DNA of 24,699 nt from a virus, in IMG/VR virus record IMGVR_UViG_3300045988_176129, positions 1 to 24,699 of that record; one strand, 5' to 3'. The notes below the pieces were generated by a model. It saw nothing but the letters and a program-made list of their open reading frames with translations. It ran no database searches and was not told the DNA's origin. Within the stretch, counting starts at the first letter, position 1, and every line of letters begins with the position of its first letter. Positions 613 to 23,629 of this stretch are shown piece after piece. Both the position numbers and the translations under genes were made by a program.

Positions 613-1730
613 GTGATTCGCTAAGTCACATGCGTTCTCTTATGAACTGCTATATATTTCTATATAGAGTAGACTATATCTTCACCCTAAGATTAGGGGC
701 CCACCACTTCCACAACCATCGCTTGTTGTGTACTCTCTTTCGAGATAGTCGTTGAACCTTCCTTTTATAAAAGGCTTGGCTGCTGATTACCTTCAACATT
801 ACTTGTAAGGCTTCCCAGCAATTCAATGGGTTTTCTGCTATTGATTACTCAATAGTGATGCTAATACACTTTTTTGTTCATCAGTTAAATTTTGATAAGA
901 TAAATAATAATCTTTATAACTTTGATTTTTTCTAATGCATTCTAATGTATTTCTACTTTTTACTCCTACAAAATTTGCCATTTCATTAAGTGGAATAATC
1001 TTGTTTTCATAATTATATAAAATTAAATGCACTTGCTGCTCAGTTAAATGTCTTTTAGACTTTATTATTGTAGAATAAGCTTTCTTTTCAATAAGATTTT
1101 GACTTTCACAAAAAATTTTATATATCTCTTGCTTTTCTTCTATTGAAAGCTTTTCATATTCTTCTTTATATTGGGAGTGATTTTCTCCTCTTTTTATTCT
1201 ACTAATAGTTGTCCTAGATACATCATATATATCTGATAATACTTGTCCAGGTCTTGACATAAACTCAAGAACAGCTAATATATTAAAAATATCTGTTTGG
1301 GTTAATTTTGAGCCTCCATTACTAGCTCCAAAATTTCCACCCTCATTTTGATTATAACCATTTCTATAACTATCATATTTTTTTATATAATATTTTTCTT
1401 TTTCTCCAATTTCCTTTTCAGTGCAATCCCCTGAAAATTCTATTGTAAAATCAAAGTTCTCAAAACCATAAATATTATACTCTTTTTGAAGAAAATGATT
1501 ATCGTGAGTGCCTCTTCTTAAATCCCCAAAATGACGACATCTTCTTCTAATTATATTATTAGTTAATCCTATATAAATTTTATGATTTATCTTATTTTCA
1601 ATTTTGTATATATAATATTGCATAATATCATCCTTTCTATTCTTTTTGATATTATACTTAAAAATAAAATACAAAAAATTGTAACGTTTTGACCAAAAAA
1701 ATTAACATATATTTGACTTTTATTTACTCT
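613..1730 (-). mobile_element. candidate group I intron carrying a GIY-YIG homing endonuclease ORF, inserted between the terminase ATPase and nuclease domains
   Basis: TerL reading frame is broken by ~1.1 kb. The HEG has its own RBS and start. About 225 nt (613-837) and ~70-110 nt (1624-1730) of non-coding flank could form the ribozyme core. Boundaries are approximate. Confidence 0.5.
838..1623 (-). CDS. GIY-YIG family homing endonuclease (I-TevI-like) with C-terminal DNA-binding region
   Basis: N-terminus MQYYIYKIENKINHKIYIGLTNN...RRRCRHF is a textbook GIY-X10-YIG motif. ATG at 1623 is preceded by AAAGGATGA SD. The six-frame track extends to a TTG at 1674. Confidence 0.85.
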   Translation of the reverse strand: MQYYIYKIENKINHKIYIGLTNNIIRRRCRHFGDLRRGTHDNHFLQKEYNIYGFENFDFTIEFSGDCTEKEIGEKEKYYIKKYDSYRNGYNQNEGGNFGASNGGSKLTQTDIFNILAVLEFMSRPGQVLSDIYDVSRTTISRIKRGENHSQYKEEYEKLSIEEKQEIYKIFCESQNLIEKKAYSTIIKSKRHLTEQQVHLILYNYENKIIPLNEMANFVGVKSRNTLECIRKNQSYKDYYLSYQNLTDEQKSVLASLLSNQ

Positions 1731-4812: not shown

Positions 4813-4841
4813 TTGACAAATAAAATATTTTTTGTTATAAT
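4813..4841 (+). promoter_or_regulatory. sigma-70-type promoter for the 4867-7622 operon
   Basis: TTGACA 4813-18, 17-nt spacer, TATAAT 4836-41, then AAAGGAG SD and ATG 4867. Confidence 0.6.
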
Positions 4842-5193: not shown

Positions 5194-5472
5194 ATGTTTC
5201 AAATAATAGCTACAATTATAGTAGGATATCTTATATTGGTTGCTTGTCAGTTAGCATATCTCATTTCTGCAAAAGAAGAAGATACTTTATTTGATACTTA
5301 TAAACATGTTTTTAGTTTTAAAATTTTATATAAAGAAACAAATTTAAATGAGTTAGGAGTAATATTATATCTTTTAATACAGATAATATTGTTCCTTCCA
5401 GCTGCAGCCGCATATTTTATTTATTGGTTATGTCATAAAAAGGAGAGGTTAAATGGTTTATCAAGGAAGTAA
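5194..5472 (+). CDS. small membrane protein (2 TM)
   Basis: GGAGGG SD; hydrophobic segments. Confidence 0.55.
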   Translation: MFQIIATIIVGYLILVACQLAYLISAKEEDTLFDTYKHVFSFKILYKETNLNELGVILYLLIQIILFLPAAAAYFIYWLCHKKERLNGLSRK

Positions 5473-6175
5473 AAATAGATTAACAAAATATATTGTTCCA
5501 ATAATACAAAAGGAAATAGATGAAAATAATATAACTACGTATATAGAGCCTTTTGTTGGAGGAGCTAATGTTATTGATAAAATTAGCTGTGAAAATAGGA
5601 TTGGCTCTGATATTAATGAAGAGCTAATCTCATTATTGAGATATATTCAAAAGGATAATAATATTTCTATTGCTCCGTCAGAATGTAGTTTTGAGCATTA
5701 TGCGGAAGTTAGAGAAGCTAGAAAGTTAAAAACCGAGAAATTTTCTAAGGAATATACTGCTTTAATTGGCTTTTGTGCAAGTTATGGCGGACGCTATTTT
5801 GATGGTGGATATGGTAGAGATGCTAAAGGTGGTAGAAGTATCTATGCAGAAAGATTAAAAAATTTAAAAGAACAAGCGCCGCATTTAGATGGAATAGAAT
5901 TTAAAAGCGGAGACTATCGGCAGTATGAAAGCACGAAATTCGCATTATTTTATATGGATCCACCATATAAGGGAACTAAACAATATTCTACCAAGTTTAT
6001 AAATTATGATGAATTTTATGATTTTTGTAGGAATTTAAGTAAAAACAATATTGTTTTAATTAGTGAATATAATATGCCGCCTGATTTTAAATGTATTTGG
6101 GAGAAAGAAAGAACTGTAAAGCAAGATGTGAATAAGAAAGGAATGAAAGCAACAGAAAAGTTGTTTATGATATAA
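5453..6175 (+). CDS. dam: DNA N6-adenine methyltransferase, Dam/D12 class
   Basis: YQGSKNRL N-terminus, motif I EPFVGGANV (FxGxG), catalytic DPPY tetrad at 5947-5958. GGAGAGG SD. Overlaps the upstream ORF by 20 nt. Confidence 0.85.
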   Translation: MVYQGSKNRLTKYIVPIIQKEIDENNITTYIEPFVGGANVIDKISCENRIGSDINEELISLLRYIQKDNNISIAPSECSFEHYAEVREARKLKTEKFSKEYTALIGFCASYGGRYFDGGYGRDAKGGRSIYAERLKNLKEQAPHLDGIEFKSGDYRQYESTKFALFYMDPPYKGTKQYSTKFINYDEFYDFCRNLSKNNIVLISEYNMPPDFKCIWEKERTVKQDVNKKGMKATEKLFMI

Positions 6176-7340: not shown

Positions 7341-7622
7341 ATGGTAAAAATAGATACATCATATGGAAAATTTTCTGTTGAAAAATCAGATGGAAATATA
7401 ATAAAAGCTAAAGATATACATGAATTAATAGACATATTACTTCCAGAATCAACAGACAATCCCACGACACAAGTTGTTACATATGTAAGTGATGAGGATG
7501 CGCTTGCTGACGCAACTGATTTAACTGTATTGGCGGCATTATGTTGTTGGGGCAATCGGTTATATAAAGGAGATAACATTAAATTGACAATAACTGCGGA
7601 ATATTGTCCTGAAGATAAATGA
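7341..7622 (+). CDS. hypothetical acidic protein (93 aa)
   Basis: AAAGGAGA SD; last gene before the 1.1-kb non-coding region. Confidence 0.6.
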   Translation: MVKIDTSYGKFSVEKSDGNIIKAKDIHELIDILLPESTDNPTTQVVTYVSDEDALADATDLTVLAALCCWGNRLYKGDNIKLTITAEYCPEDK

Positions 7623-8010
7623 TTGGGGTATTAGATTGAAAATTAATTTGGAATGTATATTTTTTCCGTCTTTGTGAATTGAAAAATGATTTGGAATGTT
7701 GGTGTGGGTGCTAAACCCCTTTTCTCAGATTTAATTTTTAAAAATCCCGAAACTATACCCCCGCCTTAATATTTTTGCAACAGAGAAAAAATTCTCTGAG
7801 TATATTGCTAGTTAGGTGAAAAAATTTTGCGAGCACTGTCTGTAGCACCGACCTATCGAAGCGTTGTGAGATCATTTATTAGGCGGGCAAAGAAGATATA
7901 AAGAAGAGTTATATCAAAGATAATAAGAGATATAAAGAAATAATTTTTATATCATTTTTCTTTTGATTACATAATGCGTCGTCTCGGTGACAACGGAGCC
8001 GAGCCGATTT

Positions 8011-8160
8011 TACGTTAGTAGTTAGGCTTAACTAATTTTAGTTGCATACGGCTAACTCTAGTTAGTTCTGACTAACTCCTGTTAGGCTGAACTAACTCAG
8101 GTTCGTCTTAGCTAACCTTGGTTAGACTGAACTAACTTCTGTTAATCACCGCTAACCTCT
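8011..8160. repeat. tandem array of ~7 degenerate ~20-21-bp direct repeats (GTTAGGCTGAACTAACTCnn)
   Basis: Visible periodicity: agttaggcttaactaatttt / agttgcatacggctaactct / agttagttctgactaactcct / gttaggctgaactaactcag / gttcgtcttagctaaccttg / gttagactgaactaacttct / gttaatcaccgctaacctct. Confidence 0.65.
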
Positions 8161-8180
8161 GGGGTGGGCGGGTGGGGGAG
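8161..8180 (+). other. G-quadruplex-type G-tract (GGGGTGGGCGGGTGGGGG), copy 1 of 5
   Basis: Four or more G3-5 runs with 1-nt loops in a 30% GC background. Same relative position as the tracts at 9469, 10669, 11381 and 12786. Confidence 0.6.
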
Positions 8181-8190
8181 GCTTGGGATA

Positions 8191-8219
8191 ATTATACCAC
8201 AAATCTATCTTTTTGTCAA
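8191..8219 (-). promoter_or_regulatory. leftward extended -10 sigma-70 promoter, cassette copy 1
   Basis: rc TTGACA (8214-19), 17-nt spacer, rc TGGTATAAT (8191-99). Confidence 0.5.
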
Positions 8220-8267
8220 GTAGTAATTTTTCACAAAAATAAAAAATTTTTTTGTGCATTTTGCCTA

Positions 8268-8296
8268 TTGACATGGGCGCATTTTTGTGCTATAAT
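8268..8296 (+). promoter_or_regulatory. sigma-70 promoter with no downstream ORF (putative ~450-nt ncRNA 8303-8750)
   Basis: TTGACA 8268-73, 17-nt spacer, TGcTATAAT 8291-96. No SD/ORF before the terminator at ~8715-8752. Confidence 0.5.
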
Positions 8297-8316
8297 TAAA
8301 ATGATATTAAAATGAT

Positions 8317-8351
8317 ACTTTAGCACGTTAAAGTGTCATCACTGCAAAGCG
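8317..8351. repeat. conserved ~35-nt hairpin element (ACTTTAG-CACG-TTAAAGT + GTYATCACTGNRAAGCG), copy a
   Basis: Family also at 8527-8562, 8607-8640, 8683-8703, 9421-9456, 10628-10663, 12725-12760 and 20699-20733. The stem covaries through G-U pairs. Confidence 0.6.
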
Positions 8352-8375
8352 AAAGACTAAGTTAAAATCCGTTTA

Positions 8376-8405
8376 ATTATACCACACAGTCGTATGGTTT
8401 GTCAA
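8376..8405 (-). promoter_or_regulatory. leftward sigma-70 promoter, cassette copy 2 (faces the plus promoter at 8268 across element a)
   Basis: rc TTGACA (8400-05), 18-nt spacer, rc TATAAT (8376-81). Confidence 0.45.
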
Positions 8406-8430
8406 TAGTAAAATGCAAAAAAAATTGCAC

Positions 8431-8462
8431 AAATTTTAATTTCCCATTTTGTGCAATCTGCA
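8431..8462. promoter_or_regulatory. operator-like inverted repeat TTGCACAA-N16-TTGTGCAA
   Basis: Perfect 8-bp arms. A member of the TGCACAA motif family enriched in intergenic DNA. Confidence 0.45.
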
Positions 8463-8479
8463 CAACGAACAAGTGTTTG

Positions 8480-8690
8480 GTTAGCCTTAACTAACTGTCC
8501 AAACAAACGTTCGGTTAGGCAAGACTAACTTTAGTGCGTTAAAGTGCTATCACTTTGCAGTGAACGTGTGGTCGGTTAGGTAAGACTAACTCAAGTTAGG
8601 AGAGGCTAACTTTAGCACACTAAAGTGATGCAGTAGCAAAGAGTTAGTTAAGACTAATTTAAGTTAGTTCAGACTAACATTAACACTTTA
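8480..8690. repeat. second cluster of GTTAG..GACTAACT iteron-like repeats interleaved with three copies of the 35-nt element
   Basis: ggttagccttaactaact / cggttaggcaagactaact / cggttaggtaagactaactc / agttagttaagactaatt / agttagttcagactaac. Confidence 0.55.
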
Positions 8691-8714
8691 ATGTGTTAAA
8701 GTGTTAATACAAAA

Positions 8715-8752
8715 GAGTAGCACAAAGAACACCTGTTCTCTGTGCTTTTTTC
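8715..8752. terminator. bidirectional rho-independent terminator
   Basis: Hairpin GCACAAAGAACACC/TGTTCTCTGTGC followed by TTTTTTCTTTTAT on plus; T-rich on minus as well. Confidence 0.5.
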
Positions 8753-8754
8753 TT

Positions 8755-8880
8755 TTATTTGTTCAATGATTCAATAATCGTAAAACCTGCCATTTCCGCA
8801 TGTCTTATTTCTTCTGTTGTCATTTCTGTTTTTCCTATTGTGCTATTGTTTAATTTTACTATTACTTTTCTCATGGCCAT
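8755..8880 (-). CDS. hypothetical small protein (41 aa) on minus strand inside the early region
   Basis: AAGGAAAGG SD plus its own minus promoter (8910-8938). MAMRKVIVKLNNSTIGKTEMTTEEIRHAEMAGFTIIESLNK. Not in the track (<60 aa). Confidence 0.4.
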   Translation of the reverse strand: MAMRKVIVKLNNSTIGKTEMTTEEIRHAEMAGFTIIESLNK

Positions 8881-9119: not shown

Positions 9120-9157
9120 TAATTCAATACTAGATGATGAAATAATAAAAATAAGTG

Positions 9158-9186
9158 TTGACAAATGAAGTATTAGATGTTATAAT
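9158..9186 (+). promoter_or_regulatory. sigma-70 promoter
   Basis: TTGACA 9158-63, 17-nt spacer, TATAAT 9181-86. Confidence 0.55.
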
Positions 9187-9239
9187 AAATATATAATAAA
9201 GGAAAGGAAACCCCACCAAAGGGGTAAAGGTAAAAGATT

Positions 9240-9377
9240 ATGAAAACACCAAAAACAAGAGGATTTTATGAGTTCAAAGATGGTACAGTGGTTTGGTTTG
9301 CTGGATTAAGTGCTAGTGAGCAGAGAAAAGAGATTGCTAAGCATGGCGCAATCATAAAGTTTACACATACTAACTAA
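9240..9377 (+). CDS. hypothetical small protein (45 aa)
   Basis: Leader AAAGGAAAGG-hairpin(CCCC/GGGG)-AAAGGTAAAAGATT-ATG. MKTPKTRGFYEFKDGTVVWFAGLSASEQRKEIAKHGAIIKFTHTN. Followed by a terminator. Confidence 0.5.
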   Translation: MKTPKTRGFYEFKDGTVVWFAGLSASEQRKEIAKHGAIIKFTHTN

Positions 9378-9468: not shown

Positions 9469-9488
9469 ATTGGGCGGGTGGGTGGGTT
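9469..9488 (+). other. G-quadruplex-type G-tract (GGGCGGGTGGGTGGG), copy 2
   Basis: Preceded by a CCCC-agtatt-GGG mini-hairpin. Confidence 0.55.
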
Positions 9489-10668: not shown

Positions 10669-10698
10669 GGGGTCCGACTTAGGGTGGTAGGGTGGGTA
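10669..10698 (+). other. G-quadruplex-type G-tract (GGGGtccgacttaGGGTGGTAGGGTGGG), copy 3
   Basis: Same cassette position. Confidence 0.5.
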
Positions 10699-11320: not shown

Positions 11321-11380
11321 ATAGCTTAAAAGTTAGTTGTAACTAACTAAGATTAGACTCGACTAACTCCGGTCTTCTCC
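11321..11380. repeat. third short cluster of GTTAG/ACTAACT iteron-like repeats
   Basis: aagttagttgtaactaactaagattagactcgactaactcc. Confidence 0.45.
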
Positions 11381-11408
11381 GGGGTGGGTGGGAGGGGGAG
11401 GGTGGAGG
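11381..11408 (+). other. G-quadruplex-type G-tract (GGGGTGGGTGGGAGGGGGAGGGTGGAGG), copy 4
   Basis: Same cassette position. The leftward -10 here is degenerate (TTAGCA). Confidence 0.55.
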
Positions 11409-11616: not shown

Positions 11617-11730
11617 ATGATAGTAATAATCAATGATACAAAGTTTGGTTTAATGCTAGTTGACTCTGAGACTGGTGAGATATTAGCTGAGGGCAAACAG
11701 GAAATAATAAATTTTATAAAAAGTTGTTGA
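11617..11730 (+). CDS. hypothetical micro-protein (37 aa)
   Basis: AAGGAGG SD. MIVIINDTKFGLMLVDSETGEILAEGKQEIINFIKSC. Confidence 0.4.
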   Translation: MIVIINDTKFGLMLVDSETGEILAEGKQEIINFIKSC

Positions 11731-11755
11731 CAAATAAAGCACAAAGTGATATAAT
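11727..11755 (+). promoter_or_regulatory. sigma-70 promoter
   Basis: TTGACA 11727-32, 17-nt spacer, TATAAT 11750-55. Confidence 0.55.
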
Positions 11756-11809
11756 AAATACAAGATAAAGGAAAGGGAATCCAAAAAAAGGATTTAAAGG
11801 TAAAAAGAT

Positions 11810-12785: not shown

Positions 12786-12801
12786 GGGGTGGGTGGGTGG
12801 G
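12786..12801 (+). other. G-quadruplex-type G-tract (GGGGTGGGTGGGTGGG), copy 5
   Basis: Canonical (G3N1)4. Preceded by CCCC-acttt-GGGG. Confidence 0.6.
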
Positions 12802-12919: not shown

Positions 12920-13020
12920 ATAGAAATTAAAGATAAGACCCCTACAAAGTAGACAAGGTGGGTTAGCTTTTATAACTGGCTTGCTTTGTTGAAAGTAGGG
13001 GCGCATAATGAAAAAATAAG
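12920..13020 (+). ncRNA. candidate structured leader / small RNA between tandem promoters
   Basis: Nested helices CCCCTAC...GTAGGGG, CAAAG...CTTTG and CAAGG...CTTG. No ORF. Confidence 0.25.
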
Positions 13021-13023
13021 TGT

Positions 13024-13052
13024 TGACAAAAGAAAATGAATATGATATAATA
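13024..13052 (+). promoter_or_regulatory. sigma-70 promoter
   Basis: TTGACA 13024-29, 17-nt spacer, TATAAT 13047-52. Confidence 0.55.
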
Positions 13053-13086
13053 AATACATAATAAAGGAAAAGAGAGGTAATAAAGT

Positions 13087-14219: not shown

Positions 14220-14444
14220 ATGAAGATTACAGAAACTAAAAAAGCAACAATAGAAGTTACAGATGAGGAATATCGCACTATTCAGACTTTCTGTAAATGG
14301 TTAAATGATAACTTATGTTGTGAAGATGTATCCTGTGCAGTGCAAGTGTTTGGAGAAGAAGAGCTTCTTATTTTTGAAGGTATATCTCCAACAATGAACA
14401 ATGTTGATATAGAGATTAAAATAAAAAATTTTAATATATCATAA
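14220..14444 (+). CDS. hypothetical protein (74 aa)
   Basis: AGAGAGGTA SD. The track start 14199 has no SD. Confidence 0.55.
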   Translation: MKITETKKATIEVTDEEYRTIQTFCKWLNDNLCCEDVSCAVQVFGEEELLIFEGISPTMNNVDIEIKIKNFNIS

Positions 14445-14475
14445 TAAATATATCAAATGAAAGGAAATAGTGTAT

Positions 14476-14634
14476 ATGACTAAAAATGAATTTATGGATA
14501 GTATTTTAAAAGAGATTGGCTCTTATTATGATGAATGTGAAAATAGTATTTTAAAGGAGATTGAAGAAAATGAGGTTATAGAGACTGCTAGAGATTTTCC
14601 ACGGTCATACATAAATTCTGATGAAAATTTGTAA
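14476..14634 (+). CDS. hypothetical small acidic protein (52 aa)
   Basis: AAAGGAAA SD. Not in the track. Confidence 0.45.
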   Translation: MTKNEFMDSILKEIGSYYDECENSILKEIEENEVIETARDFPRSYINSDENL

Positions 14635-14646
14635 AGCATAAAAATT

Positions 14647-14695
14647 ATGCACAAAAAGCCTGAGGTAGAAAATATCTCAGGCTTTTTGTGCATTT
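14647..14695. terminator. bidirectional terminator / large perfect palindrome
   Basis: TGCACAAAAAGCCTGAGG-tagaaaatat-CCTCAGGCTTTTTGTGCA. Arms carry the TGCACAA motif. T-rich flanks on both strands. Confidence 0.55.
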
Positions 14696-14758
14696 TGACG
14701 AAAAATAGAATCGGCATTTTGCACAAAAGCGTAAATGAAAATTTGTATGAATTGCCTA

Positions 14759-14787
14759 TTGACAAGCACCCCTGTATGTGATATAAT
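14759..14787 (+). promoter_or_regulatory. sigma-70 promoter firing into a GC hairpin
   Basis: TTGACA 14759-64, 17-nt spacer, TATAAT 14782-87. Confidence 0.5.
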
Positions 14788-14790
14788 TGG

Positions 14791-14819
14791 GCGGCGCGTG
14801 CCCTGCCCTTACGCGCCGC
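14791..14819. other. perfect 9-bp GC hairpin (GCGGCGCGT-gccctgccctt-ACGCGCCGC) between convergent promoters
   Basis: Both facing promoters would start transcription inside or adjacent to it. Confidence 0.55.
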
Positions 14820-14822
14820 AAT

Positions 14823-14852
14823 ATTATACCATAGTCCCCTATGGTTTGTCAA
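14823..14852 (-). promoter_or_regulatory. leftward extended -10 promoter, cassette copy 7
   Basis: rc TTGACA (14847-52), 18-nt spacer, rc TGGTATAAT (14823-31). Confidence 0.5.
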
Positions 14853-15067
14853 GACTAATTTTTAAAAAAATTGCACAAATTTTGCGATTCCCGAAAGACT
14901 TTTATTGTGCAAAATGACGAATTTTAACTTTGTGAAATCTGCACAAAACCCGCCCCGCATTTTTAGTTATTTTGCCATATTGTATTTTACCCTCTAATGT
15001 GATATTATAATACTTGTAAGGAAGAGAAAAACAAAAGCAAGCAACCTTAAAGAAAATAAAAAAAGTG

Positions 15068-15096
15068 CTTGACATTCTACTTCCTAGGGTGTATAA
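15068..15096 (+). promoter_or_regulatory. sigma-70 promoter
   Basis: TTGACA 15068-73, 17-nt spacer, TATAAT 15091-96. Confidence 0.55.
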
Positions 15097-15131
15097 TAAA
15101 TACATAATAAAGAAAAGAGAGGTACAACAAC

Positions 15132-16094
15132 ATGAAAAGAAAGTATTATTTAACATTAGACACAGAGACAGCTACAATGCCATTTGTAAAGTATATGGAT
15201 TTAAGTCCAAAGGCAAGACAACAGGTGGCAATAGCAAAGCCCCTTGTATATGATATAGGATGGTGTATCACTACAACTCAGGGAGATGTTATAAAAAAGG
15301 TAAACTATCTTATACAGGAAACATTCTTTGTTCCACAGGTATTTAATACCGCCTATTATAAGAATAAGCGACCTATTTATATGGAGCTTCTTAAAAAAGG
15401 CGAGATTGAAGTTAGAAACTGGAATAATGCTATAGAAGAACTGATAGCCGACCTTGATTTTTGTGATATGGCATGCGCATATAACGCATGTTTTGATTAC
15501 AAGAAGGCTATCCCGTTTACAGAACGTTATATTAAAGCATTATATAGCGACTACTATAATGAATGGGAAGATATGCAGAGAAAATCTGCTGAAAGGATCG
15601 CTGAAGGTGTTGATGAAAGCGAAAATCCAGAATATCTTGACCCTATTTTCCAGATTAGAGGATATGAGTTTCCTATATTGGATTTATGGGGCATGGCTTG
15701 TAAAAGACTTATAAATGTTAATAGATATAAGAAATTCTGTTATGAGAATAACTTGTTTACTAATTCAGCGATGTATTTTAAAACAAGTGCTGAGACAAGT
15801 TTTCAGTATCTCATGGATAATGTGGATTTTATCGAAGACCATACCGCATTATCAGACGCACTTATTGAGAGTGCAATTCTTACAAAGGGATTAAAAAAGG
15901 GTAAAGTTGAGCCAGATATTACAGCTTTCCCTTTTAGGGAGTTAGGTTATACATATTGCAATTGCCCTAAAAAGTATATCCCAAATGTGGCAAGTGCCTT
16001 TGAAGAATACTTAAATAAAAATAGCAATCATCCATCTAACGCATGGTGGACAAGAATTGAAAGTATTTATGAGGGGCTTATGGCTTACTTATAA
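15132..16094 (+). CDS. DEDDh-family 3'-5' exonuclease (DnaQ/RNase T-like)
   Basis: Exo I LTLDTETAT, Exo II AYNACFDYKKA, Exo III HTALSDALIESAIL. AGAGAGGTAC SD. Confidence 0.8.
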   Translation: MKRKYYLTLDTETATMPFVKYMDLSPKARQQVAIAKPLVYDIGWCITTTQGDVIKKVNYLIQETFFVPQVFNTAYYKNKRPIYMELLKKGEIEVRNWNNAIEELIADLDFCDMACAYNACFDYKKAIPFTERYIKALYSDYYNEWEDMQRKSAERIAEGVDESENPEYLDPIFQIRGYEFPILDLWGMACKRLINVNRYKKFCYENNLFTNSAMYFKTSAETSFQYLMDNVDFIEDHTALSDALIESAILTKGLKKGKVEPDITAFPFRELGYTYCNCPKKYIPNVASAFEEYLNKNSNHPSNAWWTRIESIYEGLMAYL

Positions 16095-16459: not shown

Positions 16460-16843
16460 ATGACACAGAGAGAAATGTTTAACGCAATGGTAAAGGTAGT
16501 AAATGAGGCTTCAGTAGATACTATTGAGGAGGTAGGATTTTCAAAAGATGAACTTCTTGAGGGCATCAATGCTAGAATAGAGGCTCTTGATAAGAAAAAT
16601 AGTTCATCTTCTAGCAAGCCTACAAAAAAGCAGTTAGAAAACGAAGGTATCTATAATAATATTATAGAGATTATGTCTGATAATGCATCTCGTACTGTTA
16701 GACAGATAACAGACATTTACAATTCAACTTTTGATGCAGATTTGTCAACCAATAGAGTCCAGCCACAGGTAACAAAGGCGGTAAAGAATGGAATTTTTAA
16801 CAGAACTGTTGTGAAAGGTGTCGTATATTTTGTAAGCAAGTAA
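16460..16843 (+). CDS. hypothetical protein, paralog A of the 18083 gene
   Basis: MTQREMFNAMVKV...ARIEALDKK...ENEGIY...QVTKAVKNG...VVKGVVYF is alignable along its length with 18083-18526. Confidence 0.7.
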   Translation: MTQREMFNAMVKVVNEASVDTIEEVGFSKDELLEGINARIEALDKKNSSSSSKPTKKQLENEGIYNNIIEIMSDNASRTVRQITDIYNSTFDADLSTNRVQPQVTKAVKNGIFNRTVVKGVVYFVSK

Positions 16844-17388: not shown

Positions 17389-17424
17389 GCATTTTTTTAT
17401 AAAAAAAGACTTGACATTCTGATT

Positions 17425-17457
17425 TGGCGGCGCGCTGACGCTCTTATAGCGCCGCCA
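17425..17457. other. 9-bp GC hairpin (TGGCGGCGC...GCGCCGCCA) just downstream of the leftward promoter
   Basis: Same architecture as 14791-14819. Confidence 0.5.
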
Positions 17458-17458
17458 A

Positions 17459-17488
17459 ATTATACCATACCCTCGTATGGTTTGTCAA
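17459..17488 (-). promoter_or_regulatory. leftward extended -10 promoter, cassette copy 8
   Basis: rc TTGACA (17483-88), 18-nt spacer, rc TGGTATAAT (17459-67). Confidence 0.5.
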
Positions 17489-18082: not shown

Positions 18083-18526
18083 ATGACACAGAGAGAGATG
18101 TATAACACAATTAAGAACATTATCACAGGTATTTCAACAGAGGACTTCGAGGCACTTGCCCCAGAGTTTTCAAGAGAAGAGATTGTTGAGGGTATTGATG
18201 CTAGAATTGAGGCACTCAATAAGAAGTCAACAGGTTCAAAGAAGCCTACAAAGACTCAGATTGAGAACGAGGGCATATATGCTAATATTCTTGCGTTTAT
18301 GGCGGATGGTGCGGCTCGTACTAACAAAGCTATTACTGATACCTATAATCTTCTGTATAACACAGAGTATTCTACAAACAAGATTCAGGCTCAGGTAACT
18401 AAGGCTGTCAAGGGTGGCGCGCTTAACAGGGCAGTAGTAAAGGGTGTCGTATATTTCACCATAAATGCTACTCCTACCGCCACAGATGACTCAGCAGAAG
18501 ATATTGTTGATGATGTAGAAGAGTAA
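18083..18526 (+). CDS. hypothetical protein, paralog B of the 16460 gene, with an extra acidic C-terminal tail
   Basis: MTQREMYNTIKNI...ARIEALNKK...ENEGIY...QVTKAVKGG...VVKGVVYF. AAAGGATGGA SD. Confidence 0.7.
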   Translation: MTQREMYNTIKNIITGISTEDFEALAPEFSREEIVEGIDARIEALNKKSTGSKKPTKTQIENEGIYANILAFMADGAARTNKAITDTYNLLYNTEYSTNKIQAQVTKAVKGGALNRAVVKGVVYFTINATPTATDDSAEDIVDDVEE

Positions 18527-19302: not shown

Positions 19303-19331
19303 TTGACAAGAGATAAAAGATATGGTATAAT
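19303..19331 (+). promoter_or_regulatory. sigma-70 promoter firing directly into a GC hairpin plus T-tract
   Basis: TTGACA 19303-08, 17-nt spacer, TGGTATAAT 19323-31. Then GCGGGGCGC...GCGCCCCCGC (19334-62) followed by TTTTAAAAA. Confidence 0.5.
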
Positions 19332-19423
19332 GGGCGGGGCGCGATAGACCGGGCGCCCCCGCTTTTAAAAATCAAGTGTAATTTTGAACAAAAATAAAAT
19401 AATTTTTTGTTTATTTTGTCTAT

Positions 19424-19486: not shown

Positions 19487-19741
19487 ATGAAAGTATCAAG
19501 AAAAATGAAAGTGCCAAGAAATGAAATGATTAAAATCAGAAAAAATCTTCTCAGACAGATGGATGATTATCTGCGGTCAAGCGTTGATGAAAACATTATC
19601 ATTGATATTTGGTTTGCTGTTGGTCTTGAGGATGGATGGGATAATAATATTTTAACAGAGTATGCAAGTGATGAAGATTTATGGCTGTCTTGCGTTAATG
19701 CTTTTAAAGCCTGTTGTGAAAGAGAAAATATTTTAAAATAA
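19487..19741 (+). CDS. hypothetical protein (84 aa)
   Basis: AGAGAGGTAA SD. Confidence 0.6.
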   Translation: MKVSRKMKVPRNEMIKIRKNLLRQMDDYLRSSVDENIIIDIWFAVGLEDGWDNNILTEYASDEDLWLSCVNAFKACCERENILK

Positions 19742-19747
19742 TGTTTC

Positions 19748-19776
19748 TTGACAAATAGTTGACCATATGGTATAAT
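19748..19776 (+). promoter_or_regulatory. sigma-70 promoter
   Basis: TTGACA 19748-53, 17-nt spacer, TGGTATAAT 19768-76. Confidence 0.55.
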
Positions 19777-19805
19777 AAATATATAAAGAAAGAGAGGTAA
19801 TTGAA

Positions 19806-20526: not shown

Positions 20527-20555
20527 TTGACAAAAGCAAGAAAGTATGCTAAAAT
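20527..20555 (+). promoter_or_regulatory. sigma-70 promoter firing into a GC hairpin (no ORF)
   Basis: TTGACA 20527-32, 17-nt spacer, TAAAAT 20550-55. Hairpin CGGGCC...GGCCCG at 20558-84. Confidence 0.45.
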
Positions 20556-20586
20556 GTCGGGCCGCGCACGTAGGAGCAGGCCCGCA

Positions 20587-20615
20587 ATTATACCACAAAT
20601 TACACTTCAAGTCAA
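20587..20615 (-). promoter_or_regulatory. leftward extended -10 promoter, cassette copy 9
   Basis: rc TTGACT (20610-15), 17-nt spacer, rc TGGTATAAT (20587-95). Confidence 0.45.
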
Positions 20616-21039: not shown

Positions 21040-21150
21040 ATCCCTCATTTACATGGTTGGCATCCCTCATTCACATGATTTTATATGATTTACATAATTT
21101 TATCCACTATCCACATAATAACTCTTACCTCTTATCCATTTATATAAATT
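21040..21150. promoter_or_regulatory. DnaA-box-like motifs plus short direct repeats in an AT-rich stretch; candidate origin or regulatory region
   Basis: TTATCCACT (21100-08) and CTATCCACA (21107-15) each match 8/9 of the consensus TTATCCACA. TTATCCATT at 21131-39. CCCTCATTYACATG is repeated twice. Confidence 0.35.
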
Positions 21151-21170
21151 ATCTCTCATATACAAAACAA

Positions 21171-21196
21171 AAGGATATAGTGTTACCTATATCCTT
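21171..21196 (-). terminator. terminator for the minus-strand gene 22005->21187
   Basis: AAGGATATAG-tgttac-CTATATCCTT overlapping the stop. The minus-strand flank is TTGTTTTGT. Confidence 0.45.
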
Positions 21197-22005
21197 AAAC
21201 TATCTACCAATTCTTTTATTGCCCCTAATTGACTTTCAATATTATTTAACTTCTCATCATAAAATAATTCTCTTCTTTGCGGAACTACATCAAACTTATA
21301 AGGGGTTGTTACCCCACCCACATTATATCTAGGTTTAAAATATTCTATAAATATCTTCTCTATATGTGCTAATTCATATCTACTAACACTTTCACTTTCA
21401 AATATAACTCTAAAAGAGATATTTTCTAACCCTATTTCATGCAGCTCTTTATACATAATATTAAAAATACCTTCTTTTATTTTATCTACATGTTCCTTAA
21501 TTCTTATAGTAATAGGTCTACAAGTCATTCCTACATATAACAAATCTTCTCCACAATAAATACCATAAATATATCCTTTATTCTTCCCATCTTCTATCTT
21601 CCCTGCATACATGCCCATCTCAATCTCTACTTCTTCTATATGTGATCTAAGCTCTTCTAAACCATCTCCATATGGAACCAAATGAGCCAACATTTTATAT
21701 ACATGCCCAATTATCATTCCATATTTTCCTCTGGGCACTATCCCCAAAGCCTTAGACAAAAGAATAGGACCAAAAGCCAATAACCAATCTCTAATGTCAT
21801 CCATTCCCTCTTTATAAACAACCTCTTTATTAGAATAATAACCAAAAGCATTCCTTAAATCTACAAAACACTTTTCTTCTTCAAAGCGGAAATGAGTGAA
21901 TCCGTACTCCTCTTGATGTTCATATAAATACTTATATACCGGAATAATATACTCCTTATTTAATATTCCACACTTACCAAAATTTACTGTTTCTACTTCT
22001 TGCAT
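21187..22005 (-). CDS. GIY-YIG domain protein with the nuclease motif in the central/C-terminal half
   Basis: KGYIYGIYCGEDLLYVGMTCRPITIRIKEHV matches GIY-X10-YVG...R...E. The N-terminal 140 aa are unrecognised. Confidence 0.55.
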   Translation of the reverse strand: MQEVETVNFGKCGILNKEYIIPVYKYLYEHQEEYGFTHFRFEEEKCFVDLRNAFGYYSNKEVVYKEGMDDIRDWLLAFGPILLSKALGIVPRGKYGMIIGHVYKMLAHLVPYGDGLEELRSHIEEVEIEMGMYAGKIEDGKNKGYIYGIYCGEDLLYVGMTCRPITIRIKEHVDKIKEGIFNIMYKELHEIGLENISFRVIFESESVSRYELAHIEKIFIEYFKPRYNVGGVTTPYKFDVVPQRRELFYDEKLNNIESQLGAIKELVDSLRI

Positions 22006-22083
22006 CTTATAATCTCCTTTAAAATTATTGTCGGTTTTTCTAAGAAAAATTTTTCGTGAATTGGAGAAGCGAAGCTTCGTAAA

Positions 22084-22363
22084 TTCCGAAAATTTTTCGG
22101 AATATATATATAGAAAAATAAACTGAAAGATTTTCTGAGGATTTTCCGAAGAATTTATTTAATTTTCCGAATTTTTTCTGAAAATTCATTAGATTCTTCG
22201 GAAAAATACTTAATTTTCCGAAATTTTTCTGAAAAAAATTCATTTAATTTTCCGAATTTTTTCTTAATAATTTTCCGAAAAATTTTAATACCCCTATTAA
22301 AATTTAAAAGCCCCTATTTGAACTTTTTCCGGAAATTTTTCTTTTTCAAAAGAATTTTCCGAA
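22084..22363. repeat. array of about 10 TTCCGAA/TTCTGAA-centred palindromes resembling CodY boxes (AATTTTCWGAAAATT)
   Basis: Examples: AATTTTCCGAATTTT, TTTTTTCTGAAAATT (13/15), AATTTTCCGAAATTT (13/15), AATTCCGAAAATTTTTCGGAA, TTTTTCCGGAAATTTTT. Spacing ~22-35 bp. Lies in the 290-bp gap upstream of the 22005 gene start and runs into the 3' end of the next ORF. Confidence 0.6.
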
Positions 22364-22731
22364 TACTCCCCCCTATTTTTCCAACCTGGCTGTTCATAAA
22401 TAGCCTTCTTTTTTTTCTCATCCCAGCCATTTAATTTTGCGATAGTAGGCGCATTATACCCCTCCCCCGCCATTTTCTTTATTATTTCTTGTTCTTCTTC
22501 TGTAAAAATACCAGGTCTTCCAACTTTCTTATATTTTTTATTCATATTATCTATTTGACTTTTGATAGAATTAAAATACCCTTGAACATATCTACTATCA
22601 GTAAGAGCAACTTCTTCCCCATATAAAGCATAAATATTAATTCTATAATTTAATTCTGCAAACTCTTCTACTTTCATGGTATCTTTTACATCATCAAGCC
22701 ATTTTTTTTGTATAGGAAAACTATTTGACAT
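22297..22731 (-). CDS. hypothetical protein with Hin/resolvase-type C-terminal HTH (GRPGIFTEEEQEIIKKMAGEGYNAPTIAKLNGW)
   Basis: 144-aa ORF. Confidence 0.55.
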   Translation of the reverse strand: MSNSFPIQKKWLDDVKDTMKVEEFAELNYRINIYALYGEEVALTDSRYVQGYFNSIKSQIDNMNKKYKKVGRPGIFTEEEQEIIKKMAGEGYNAPTIAKLNGWDEKKKKAIYEQPGWKNRGEYSENSFEKEKFPEKVQIGAFKF

Positions 22732-22733
22732 AA

Positions 22734-22922
22734 TTACTCCTTTCCACGAATCCTCTTAAAATCTTCGTTAAAAGTTTCATCATTTTCAAATATCCACATA
22801 ATTTTATCTTTATAACGCGGATTATCTTGTGTCATAAAAATACTATGTCCCATCCGCACTAATTCCATAGCATAATCAAGCTTATAAATCATTATATACT
22901 TTGGTTCTGTTCTGTTCTGCAC
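22734..22922 (-). CDS. hypothetical protein (62 aa, GTG start)
   Basis: AAGGAG SD 9 nt before the GTG at 22922. Confidence 0.45.
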   Translation of the reverse strand: MQNRTEPKYIMIYKLDYAMELVRMGHSIFMTQDNPRYKDKIMWIFENDETFNEDFKRIRGKE

Positions 22923-22928
22923 TTGCGT

Positions 22929-23087
22929 TTACTCCTTATATTTTATTTCATAATTTGCGGACTTGCCATATCCAATCTTCGTAATAGCAATGCCCTTTTT
23001 TGCGTAAGTCTCTTGTGTTCGTTTAAAGTTTTGTTTAATTGTACTTTCTTTTATTTTTAATTCTTTTGCTAACTCACTAAGAGTCAA
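22929..23087 (-). CDS. small HTH DNA-binding protein (52 aa, TTG start), Xis/AlpA-like regulator
   Basis: GGAGGTG SD 7 nt before the TTG. (M)TLSELAKELKIKESTIKQNFKRTQETYAKKGIAITKIGYGKSANYEIKYKE. Not in the track. Confidence 0.4.
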   Translation of the reverse strand: MTLSELAKELKIKESTIKQNFKRTQETYAKKGIAITKIGYGKSANYEIKYKE

Positions 23088-23132
23088 AATATTTCACCTC
23101 CTTATTACTTACATTATAATATAAAAATTACT

Positions 23133-23151
23133 TTAAACAAATTGTTTAAAC
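23133..23151. promoter_or_regulatory. perfect palindrome TTTAAACAA-A-TTGTTTAAA overlapping the putative -35 of the HTH gene promoter
   Basis: Minus strand reads TTGTTT-16 nt-TATAAT and then GGAGGTG-TTG. An autoregulatory operator is plausible. Confidence 0.35.
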
Positions 23152-23156
23152 TTGAC

Positions 23157-23190
23157 CAAAAAAAATAAGGGGCAAGCCCCTCAAAGAAAC
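23157..23190 (-). terminator. rho-independent terminator for the minus gene 23623->23228
   Basis: Minus strand reads GAGGGGCTTGCCCCTTA then TTTTTTTTGG. Confidence 0.55.
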
Positions 23191-23227
23191 CTACCCCCTA
23201 ATCATTACTAGATCCATTAATCAACCC

Positions 23228-23623
23228 TCATATAATAAATACCGCCCAAGTTAAAATAACCTGTGAAATATGAATCAACTGATCTTGGATAAGATTAATT
23301 ATTTTTTTATTTGCCTTACTATCATCCACTATGCAATGAATTGCCCAATTAAAACAAAACATAAATAAATATATCTTATATGCTAACTCATTTGAATTAA
23401 AGTATAGATAAATTGTTGGAATCAACATAATCATAAAAGTCCAACTAAAAGCATGTTCACACAAAGCCATAATATAATCATTCTTATATAACTCATCTGG
23501 GGTATTACTTTCCCACCATGACTTTTGTTTAGCAGAAGCCAACCATCCCTGCAAATAATAGTCATCCACAATATGACAAAATAACATGCCTAGTAATAAA
23601 ATTATTTTTAAATACATAAGCAT
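23228..23623 (-). CDS. integral membrane protein (4 TM) with duplicated H(I/C)VDD motif
   Basis: 131-aa hydrophobic ORF. HIVDDYY and HCIVDD each sit at a helix end. Confidence 0.6.
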   Translation of the reverse strand: MLMYLKIILLLGMLFCHIVDDYYLQGWLASAKQKSWWESNTPDELYKNDYIMALCEHAFSWTFMIMLIPTIYLYFNSNELAYKIYLFMFCFNWAIHCIVDDSKANKKIINLIQDQLIHISQVILTWAVFII

Positions 23624-23629
23624 TACACC

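Follow-up and report, generated by a model that had tools for sequence, protein, structure and literature searches.

Facing consensus promoters around a GC-only hairpin form a recurring non-coding cassette in the early regions of gut Firmicute phages, with a putative role at transcription-unit boundaries

The 24,699-nt stretch of viral DNA analysed here (IMG/VR record IMGVR_UViG_3300045988_176129, positions 1 to 24,699; hereafter the window) carries an apparently undescribed non-coding element, of which many gut Firmicute phages have copies in their early regions. In this element a gene-direction promoter, P_L, and an antisense promoter, P_R, face each other across a short GC-only hairpin. The cassette is conserved and phage-specific, and its functional role is putative. 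Our best explanation, to which we give a probability of about 0.35, is that it is a boundary cassette between early transcription units, whose mutually exclusive promoters would produce either a hairpin-capped antisense RNA or a rightward read-on transcript and would interfere with each other; the figure is no higher because activity, start sites and effects are all deduced from sequence. A survey of the literature on facing promoters with hairpins, SPO1 early promoters, Herelleviridae non-coding RNAs and the phage phAss-1 yielded no description of the cassette.

The window has a G+C content of about 31% and the appearance of an early region, of host-takeover type, in a lytic SPO1-like phage. 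At its left end lies a terminase large-subunit-like gene, split by a group I intron (650-911, minus strand) with a GIY-YIG endonuclease ORF inside it; this terminase distantly resembles those of Enterococcus and Geobacillus SPO1-like phages. The region from about 4.8 to 21 kb is filled with small ORFs, dozens in number and directed rightward, nearly all without a Pfam match, and the GC skew tracks gene orientation. Perfect promoters of the form TTGACA-N17/18-TATAAT number 23 against 0.07 expected, a count reached by none of 100 shuffled sequences; 22 of them lie within 8-20 kb among ORFs of 50-150 aa, the remaining one at 4813. The promoter families are highly repetitive, and the leader that follows the gene promoters is polypurine, like the SP82 stabiliser (family D1). 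No close DNA relative of the window was found among isolated phages. With the product of ORF 15132-16094 as query, an exact-protein look-up in public metagenome assemblies recovered only the source contig and a 98%-identical variant (L004), and a protein-guided search of viral contigs gave no relatives. The metagenomes of origin are Logan SRR17032147 and ERR1137517. At about 98% identity, L004 is too close for covariation analysis; it differs from the window in gene-sized blocks (9206-9366, 14426-14659, 19490-19779 and 21049-23629), of which 14426-14659, the sole block inspected at base level, ends at a conserved terminator.

At 14759-14852, all the elements named in the original prediction are present. 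P_L occupies 14759-14787 on the plus strand (TTGACA 14759-14764, a 17-bp spacer with TG at 14779-80 forming TGa, and TATAAT 14782-14787), and P_R occupies 14852-14823 on the minus strand (reverse-complement TTGACA 14852-14847, an 18-bp spacer, TGg, and reverse-complement TATAAT 14828-14823); each matches the consensus at 12/12 positions and has a TGn extended -10 box. The L004 variant has TTGATA as the -35 box of P_L. An inverted repeat, ACCATAG/CTATGGT (14828-14845), lies within the P_R spacer, and a search with this spacer hit three unrelated contigs and was uninformative. Between the promoters, a GC-only hairpin with a stem of 9-10 bp is present on both strands at 14791-14819 (arms GCGGCGCGT, 14791-14799, and ACGCGCCGC, 14811-14819; 11-nt loop), the plus-strand and minus-strand folding energies being -19.1 and -17.6 kcal/mol. 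The 35 bp separating the two -10 boxes are 74% G+C, as counted from the sequence. Taken alone, the window hairpins have modest fold z-scores (-1.3 to -3.5), since a GC-rich 30-mer will always fold, and their significance rests on position and recurrence.

The hairpin stands only 1-3 nt from both -10 boxes. With starts placed 7 +/- 1 nt past the -10 box, transcription is predicted to begin at about 14794 (plus) and 14816 (minus), some 22 bp apart, and the two predicted transcripts would overlap by about 22 nt at their 5' ends. Both RNAs would thus begin inside the stem and retain 6-7 of its 9-10 pairs (over the window, predicted starts inside the stem leave 5-7 pairs); the idea that each transcript opens with the same hairpin is borne out for the hairpin itself and not for a whole stem at the 5' ends. 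A bound polymerase covers about -55 to +20. With starts this close, one promoter would be occupied at a time and each transcript would cross the other promoter; on this geometry and textbook footprints, the predicted exclusion of simultaneous occupancy appears sound, and given that exclusion an interference switch is a reasonable reading. No Shine-Dalgarno sequence and no credible ORF start was found in 14788-14822, and the ORFs that span it (14526-14852, minus; 14735-14917, plus) start upstream of the predicted RNA starts. Past the hairpin, the plus strand continues with AATATTATA and the minus strand with CCAATTATA; neither forms a U-tract (T counts of 4 and 3 in 9 nt), and 28 of 30 two-promoter cassettes elsewhere likewise have no T-run after the hairpin. 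The very short capped-hairpin RNAs that had been proposed are therefore not expected from intact cassettes.

About 100 bp upstream of the main-site hairpin, the preceding unit ends in a bidirectional terminator at 14653-14688 (A5, GCCTGAG 14658-64, an 11-nt loop, CTCAGGC 14676-82, T5), which is also the sole helix retained in the centroid fold of 14650-14817 (minus). The leftward P_R RNA is predicted to run from 14816 to 14653, about 165 nt. Folding of the whole predicted RNAs gave nothing apart from terminal hairpins, and Rfam and tRNA scans returned nothing in the cassette region. On the other side, no terminator-like site was found between 14852 and ORF 15132-16094 (plus strand, 320 aa, without a Pfam match), so that P_L probably reads into this ORF and adds to its transcription; the claim that neither promoter drives a protein gene is not supported on this point. 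The next perfect promoter (15069-15097, plus) lies directly ahead of the same ORF. A palindrome formed by TGCACAAATTT...AAATTTGTGCA was considered as a terminator-like site and is better read as the upstream elements of the divergent P_R and next gene promoter. A terminator oriented with the transcript lies within 180 nt in 44% of 73 P_R units, compared with 9% of random control positions, and the predicted RNA length has its mode at 107-110 nt. About half of the units have no terminator in their own direction, and the P_R RNAs share no conserved body except the complement of P_L.

As had been anticipated, the design recurs within the window, and it was found far outside it as well. At 20527-20615, both facing promoters match the consensus at 11/12 positions (plus, 20527-55, with TAAAAT; minus, 20587-615, with TTGACT) around a hairpin at 20558-84. 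A wider pair at 8268-8405, both 12/12 (plus, 8268-8296; minus, 8376-8405), has 79 nt between the -10 boxes and an AT-rich 35-nt repeat element in place of the GC hairpin. The partial copy at 17411-17488 is a decayed cassette, with a relic of the plus -35 box (17411-16), an intact minus promoter (17459-88) and the hairpin TGGCGGCGC...GCGCCGCCA at 17425-57; its leftward RNA, about 105 nt from 17453 to 17345, is predicted to end at a terminator at 17351-81. The arrangement at 19303-19366, noted as a plus promoter ahead of a hairpin and T-tract, was confirmed in the sequence, with a 12/12 match (19303-31), a GC hairpin at about 19333-62 and TTTT (family D10). This site is a deletion derivative of the promoter-embedded terminator type: the facing promoter is gone, a remnant of its -35 region (aaaaatcaagt) is left, and loss of the P_R -10 region has brought TTTTGTGTCAA up to the stem. 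Unlike the main-site hairpin, that at 19333-66 is followed directly by the U-tract typical of intrinsic terminators (TTTT). The same type of derivative occurs in contigs L094, L276, L293 and L302 and in phAss-1, and T-run-bearing derivatives also include L010 and L055.

IMG/VR was scanned for face-to-face pairs of perfect promoters separated by 20-50 bp, and at least 119 viral contigs were found to carry such pairs, against a rough chance expectation of about one or fewer. With the GC hairpin defined by at least 55% G+C and a folding energy of -13 kcal/mol or better, it was present in 26 of 95 distinct viral facing pairs, on 24 contigs, and in 0 of 116 distinct facing pairs of bacterial genomes, both among the matches listed (Fisher p = 1e-10). 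The bacterial pairs among those matches came mostly from MAGs of Ruminococcus, Oscillospiraceae and other Clostridia. Pairs of consensus promoters that face each other are thus frequent in Clostridia, and, as the bacterial pairs lack the GC hairpin, the hairpin-bearing version is phage-specific within the sample. Genomes with hairpin cassettes span 28-48% G+C, and several of the viral contigs have a terminase region whose nucleotide sequence is 65-75% identical to that of the window. The sole isolated or named relative, and the one hit of a more distant search with the cassette, is phAss-1 (OQ749652), which carries the cassette and has a G+C content of 44.5% against 31% in the window; when a 336-nt window cassette was used as query against it, the cassette was the only nucleotide match returned. 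phAss-1 was described as a TAG-recoding gut phage with a predicted Clostridia host, in a paper that makes no mention of promoters, repeats or hairpins (PMC10607447).

Across the family, the elements follow a common order in the gene direction: the terminator of the upstream unit, TTTTTGTGCATTTTGCCTA, P_L (TTGACA-N17-TGnTATAAT), a gap of 3-4 nt (mostly NGG), a GC-only hairpin whose stem measures 7-16 bp and whose loop measures 3-13 nt, (G)AAATTTCC and P_R, beyond which come AAAAAATGCACAAATTT ... TCCCGAAATTTGTGCA and the next gene promoter. The stems differ among cassettes and the pairing is kept. Over 32 distinct cassettes, the hairpin stands mostly 3-4 nt from the -10 box of P_L and 7-9 nt from that of P_R, and the leader on the P_R side reads (G)GAAATTTC. 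In most relatives, the P_R RNA is predicted to start 1-3 nt ahead of the hairpin and to carry it whole, and the P_L RNA to start in the 5' arm and hence to be made without the full hairpin. Given this asymmetry of spacing, only the antisense RNA would have the whole hairpin at its 5' end. The window cassettes, with the hairpin 1-3 nt from both -10 boxes, are atypical in this respect.

Since stems vary in length and fold-selected arms make pair counts circular, statistics anchored on the leader and on proteins were preferred. When the first 50 nt after 583 distinct perfect promoters in the collected DNA were folded, an energy of -14 kcal/mol or better was obtained for 92% of the 48 promoters with a GGAAATTY-type leader and for 3% of those with an AT-rich leader; the leader motif thus predicts the hairpin without circularity. 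In a set of 17 relatives retrieved via a neighbouring protein rather than by pattern, together with the window, a GC hairpin follows 21 of 58 antisense promoters compared with 4 of 102 gene-direction promoters (odds ratio 14, p = 1e-7). This enrichment identifies the conserved core as a consensus promoter in antisense orientation, followed by a short AT leader and then a GC hairpin, to which the facing promoter is often added. A further search, anchored on one hairpin type with promoters not required, gave 50 distinct sites, with P_L matching at 11/12 or better in 34 and P_R at 10/12 or better in 23. Both promoters, one or neither were all seen at these sites, indicating that the facing arrangement is dispensable at many of them. 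Individual relatives show how the parts vary: L064 and L122 have the 30-bp hairpin segment in exactly opposite orientations, L091 has lost the hairpin loop and retains two perfect promoters, and L064 carries four perfect promoters in about 270 bp with no credible gene between them.

As a boundary cassette, the element would mark the border between early transcription units of a lytic SPO1-like gut Firmicute phage, its two face-to-face sigma-A promoters being bound by one polymerase at a time. P_R would yield a short non-coding RNA (about 165 nt at the main site) that begins with the GC hairpin, runs back over P_L and ends at 14653-14688, and that would be discrete wherever the upstream terminator works bidirectionally. 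In Firmicutes, a stem-loop at the very 5' end shields an RNA from 5'-end-dependent decay, and the 5' hairpin may protect the P_R RNA in this way; SPO1 early promoters likewise have small leader hairpins downstream. P_L would start within the 5' arm, so its RNA would escape most of the hairpin and cross P_R toward ORF 15132-16094. Interference between the two promoters, through occlusion, head-on collision and complementary 5' ends, would then set the amount of transcription that enters the downstream unit. In the window phage the argument from a 5' cap is weaker, because the hairpin lies so close to both -10 boxes that neither predicted RNA has the full stem. Counting against the boundary-cassette reading as a whole are the roughly one half of P_R units without a terminator in their own direction, the want of a conserved P_R RNA body, the dispensability of the facing arrangement, the loop loss beside perfect promoters in L091, and an overlap that, unlike that of classic antisense switches, contains no regulated start codon.

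By analogy, the cassette would work most like the facing pairs IS10 pIN/pOUT, P22 Pant/Psar and 186 pR/pL, and it departs from them in what defines them, as neither a regulated start codon nor an operator lies in its overlap. In IS10/Tn10 and P22, as here, promoters face each other at short range with a 5' overlap of a few tens of nucleotides, and the short antisense RNA is dominated by a stable stem-loop; the overlap in those systems spans the ribosome-binding site and start codon of one regulated gene. The cassette, unlike them, has no ORF start in the overlap, has two full-consensus promoters, is present in many copies per genome and leaves its stem sequence free to vary. Coliphage 186 pR-pL and P2 Pe-Pc are likewise facing phage promoters, at which occlusion or 'sitting duck' collision sets the transcription choice. 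These are single lysis-lysogeny switches of temperate phages with repressor operators, whereas the cassette is repeated in the early region of an apparently lytic SPO1-like phage, and has a GC hairpin between promoters whose predicted starts are separated by just some 22 bp.

The early RNAs of SPO1 and SP82 resemble the cassette in having, no more than about 10 nt past a strong sigma-A promoter, a small GC hairpin or polypurine tract at the RNA 5' end, and the SP82 early RNA leader is a 5' stabiliser in Bacillus. On predicted starts, most relatives of the cassette would have the hairpin at about +1 to +3 of the P_R RNA. SPO1 leaders belong to coding mRNAs made from single promoters, whereas the cassette hairpin would head antisense RNAs that contain no ORF, and a second promoter encloses it from the other side. 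The cassette also resembles the promoter-early stem-loop (PeSL) elements of T4-type phages in its composition, its copy number and its setting, the likeness extending neither to the position and role of the stem-loop nor to the facing promoters. PeSLs combine a near-perfect TTGACA-N17-TATAAT promoter, AT-rich upstream sequence and a GC-rich stem-loop, and are associated with insertions and deletions between close relatives; each stem-loop has one promoter, terminates upstream transcription and is oriented with the genes (PMC2839356, PMC4122927). PeSLs, too, occur in many copies in gene-dense regions of small ORFs without assigned function. The cassette hairpin, in contrast, lies downstream of its promoters, usually has no U-tract and is tied mainly to antisense promoters, often with a second promoter facing the first, and the hosts are Firmicutes rather than the Gram-negative hosts of PeSL.

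It is possible, although we regard it as doubtful, that the cassette acts as an insulator, in which the hairpin and a polymerase parked on or firing from the opposing promoter would block read-through between early units, and P_L would restart inside the hairpin and make an RNA immune to it. The location of the cassettes, directly past the upstream-unit terminator and ahead of the next gene promoter, fits such a role, as does the predicted P_L start within the 5' arm; deletion derivatives with a T-run at the hairpin (19303-66; L276, L293, L302, L305 and L307) are true promoter-embedded terminators, and PeSL stem-loops of T4-type phages were shown to be terminators or attenuators (PMC2839356). 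Insulation is harder to reconcile with the lack of a T-run in 28 of 30 two-promoter cassettes and with the canonical terminator already upstream at 14653-88, and footprint geometry suggests that an incoming polymerase would meet the promoter-bound one before transcribing the hairpin. That the hairpins are ordinary terminators of neighbouring genes, lying near promoters by chance, is hardly credible. They are intergenic and GC-rich, and a few derivatives do have T-runs (19363-66; L010, L055), but there is none at 14820-28 or on the opposite strand, the A5-stem-T5 terminator at 14653-14688 is a separate element 100 bp upstream, and both -10 boxes abut the stem in a geometry that is fixed in 32 cassettes. 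The simple-terminator reading, which the original prediction had held open, was thus rejected for hairpins without T-runs. Another view, which we consider unlikely, takes the facing pairs as one neutral arrangement left by frequent, PeSL-like recombination of useful promoter and hairpin units. The mixture of both, either or neither promoter at hairpin-anchored sites speaks for it, together with the inverted segment of L064/L122, the deleted loop of L091, the gene-sized blocks that separate the window from L004 (the inspected one ending at a conserved terminator) and the highly repetitive promoter families. A by-product of shuffling would not be expected to keep tight asymmetric spacing (3-4 versus 7-9 nt) across genomes of 28-48% G+C, or two promoters still perfect in many diverged copies, and the GC-hairpin form is not found in the 116 bacterial facing pairs among the matches listed.

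Improbable, too, is a host-takeover device that would act through promoters and GC-rich obstacles instead of genes, either by local capture and recycling of polymerase or by a flood of decoy RNA. Polymerase might be held at slow-escaping full-consensus sigma-A promoters, often in facing pairs, with a GC hairpin immediately after them; other leftward units of the window carry a G3N1G3N1G3 run on the template strand, which could serve as the obstacle. Alternatively, stable RNAs with a 5'-triphosphate GC hairpin or a C-rich sequence might decoy host RNases, ribosome-binding sites or immune sensors. The polymerase sink of the original prediction, by which the promoters would capture or recycle host sigma-A holoenzyme on phage DNA and the RNAs would be junk, is quite unlikely. 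All affinity elements are maximal (upstream TTTGTGCATTTT, -35, TG, -10 and GG past the -10), four perfect promoters stand in about 270 bp of L064 with no credible gene between, the promoters of L091 have outlasted the loss of the hairpin loop, and the P_R RNAs lack a conserved body. A sink, however, would not require the pairing of the hairpin to be maintained and does not account for the link between hairpin and antisense orientation, and some 30 promoters on one infecting genome could hardly titrate thousands of polymerases. It is very unlikely that the product is an abundant hairpin RNA, made from both strands, that mimics a CRISPR repeat or a substrate of a host RNase or immune sensor. Strong promoters, a small structured product and a phage-specific cassette in several copies, each with a different stem, would suit such a decoy, but loops of 9-13 nt on GC-only stems of 7-16 bp do not look like typical CRISPR repeats, the leader is the only conserved sequence, and the loop may be inverted or deleted. 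We give very little weight, finally, to an element acting at the DNA level (a cruciform, replication origin or processing site), where the promoters would merely open the DNA. The palindrome is perfect, its outer pairs in the window lie upstream of both predicted RNA starts, and the exact inversion between relatives shows that it is active as DNA; against this, cruciform extrusion is disfavoured by loops as long as 9-13 nt, each genome has several copies, neither an iteron nor an initiator context was identified, and the GC skew merely follows gene orientation.

Hardly any work has addressed the early regions of large lytic phages that infect gut Clostridia, and the cassette is among the most conserved nucleotide features of these regions; it offers a sequence signature by which this phage clade and its early regions can be spotted in metagenomes. 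Because it is short, repeated, phage-specific and built from parts of known biochemistry, its logic is directly testable on a 200-bp template. Should the two promoters toggle, nature would have supplied a compact interference switch, open to reuse in Firmicute synthetic biology; should the product instead be the promoters themselves or the hairpin RNAs, the cassette would represent a novel kind of non-protein takeover function.

A further motif, TGCACAAA, accompanies the cassettes, also in other phages. The window contains 19 copies against 0.97 expected, nearly all adjoining cassettes, and five of them surround the main one (14648-55, plus; 14685-92, minus; 14720-27, plus; 14872-79, plus; 14940-47, plus). 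It could be an upstream element common to this promoter class, or a regulator site.

The facing promoters that flank the hairpin of the cassette were unchanged in all three of the related phages compared (3/3), even where the hairpin itself differed. A 30-bp hairpin segment is exactly inverted between the retrieved contigs L064 (6504-6541) and L122 (7027-7064), and the hairpin loop is deleted in the third phage, L091 (7328-7352). Comparison of the window with L004, a 98%-identical variant, revealed whole gene-sized replacements or deletions in blocks at 9206-9366, 14426-14659, 19490-19779 and 21049-23629, and a conserved terminator forms the end of the one block inspected. These gene-sized differences suggest cassette exchange, resembling that described for the promoter-early stem-loop (PeSL) cassettes of T4-type phages.

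The gene-direction promoters of repeat family D1 (9147-9210, 11716-11779, 13012-13075, 15058-15121 and others) share a conserved leader, TATAAT-AAATAYATAATAAAGGAAAGG. It forms a polypurine tract close to the 5' end of the RNA, and in this it resembles the Bacillus SP82 5' stabiliser. Two antisense promoters of the window each carry a 7-bp inverted repeat within the 18-bp spacer (ACCATAG..CTATGGT at 14828-14845 and ACCATAC..GTATGGT at 17464-17481); in other phages, the spacer of the antisense promoter P_R is conserved as AAATTGCTGGCGGGGTG instead.

Quadruplex-like G3N1G3N1G3-type runs occur five times on the plus strand of the window (8162-8180, 9472-9486, 10682-10696, 11382-11406 and 12787-12801), compared to 0.43 expected, and all of them (5/5) sit downstream of leftward consensus promoters (8219, 9526, 10735, 11440 and 12839, respectively), at a distance of 10-30 nt. 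Antisense RNAs from these five promoters would be predicted to start with CCCACCCACCC-type C-rich leaders, which are similar to the anti-Shine-Dalgarno sequence. These promoters and their G-rich runs make up a second type of leftward non-coding unit.

Small GTTAG-N6-CTAAC hairpins are arrayed with a 20-bp period at 8018-8151, 8470-8680 and 11330-11373, as well as in the contigs L140 and L127; TRF reported 4.3 copies of period 20 at 8052-8137. The arrays lie downstream of non-coding promoters within the 1.1-kb gene-free stretch at 7620-8760; in relatives, this motif is found after antisense promoters. A 35-nt repeat family (ACTTTAGCACGTTAAAGTGTCATCACTG...), containing an ACTTTA/TAAAGT inverted repeat, has seven intergenic copies of 35 nt each (8317, 8528, 8609, 8685, 9422, 10629 and 12726), and a similar stretch read by eye at about 20697 is possibly a further copy.

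MAGs of Ruminococcus, Oscillospiraceae and other Clostridia (L144-L263, from the facing-promoter pattern scan) abound in perfect facing promoter pairs of the sigma-70 type, and these pairs often enclose small palindromes that are AT-rich and operator-like, such as ACATAACGNNGTTATGT. This bacterial element is different from the phage cassette, and may be a switch belonging to prophages or to other mobile elements.

Elsewhere in the window, a terminase large-subunit-like gene (region 1-2400) is split by a group I intron (650-911, minus strand; 94.7 bits to Rfam RF00028), which carries an ORF for a GIY-YIG homing endonuclease (838-1674, minus strand). The ORFs at 16460-16843 and 18083-18526, neither of which matched Pfam, both start with MTQREM and have very similar N-terminal sequences, and are possibly paralogues. 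A D12-class N6-adenine DNA methyltransferase is encoded at 5453-6175.
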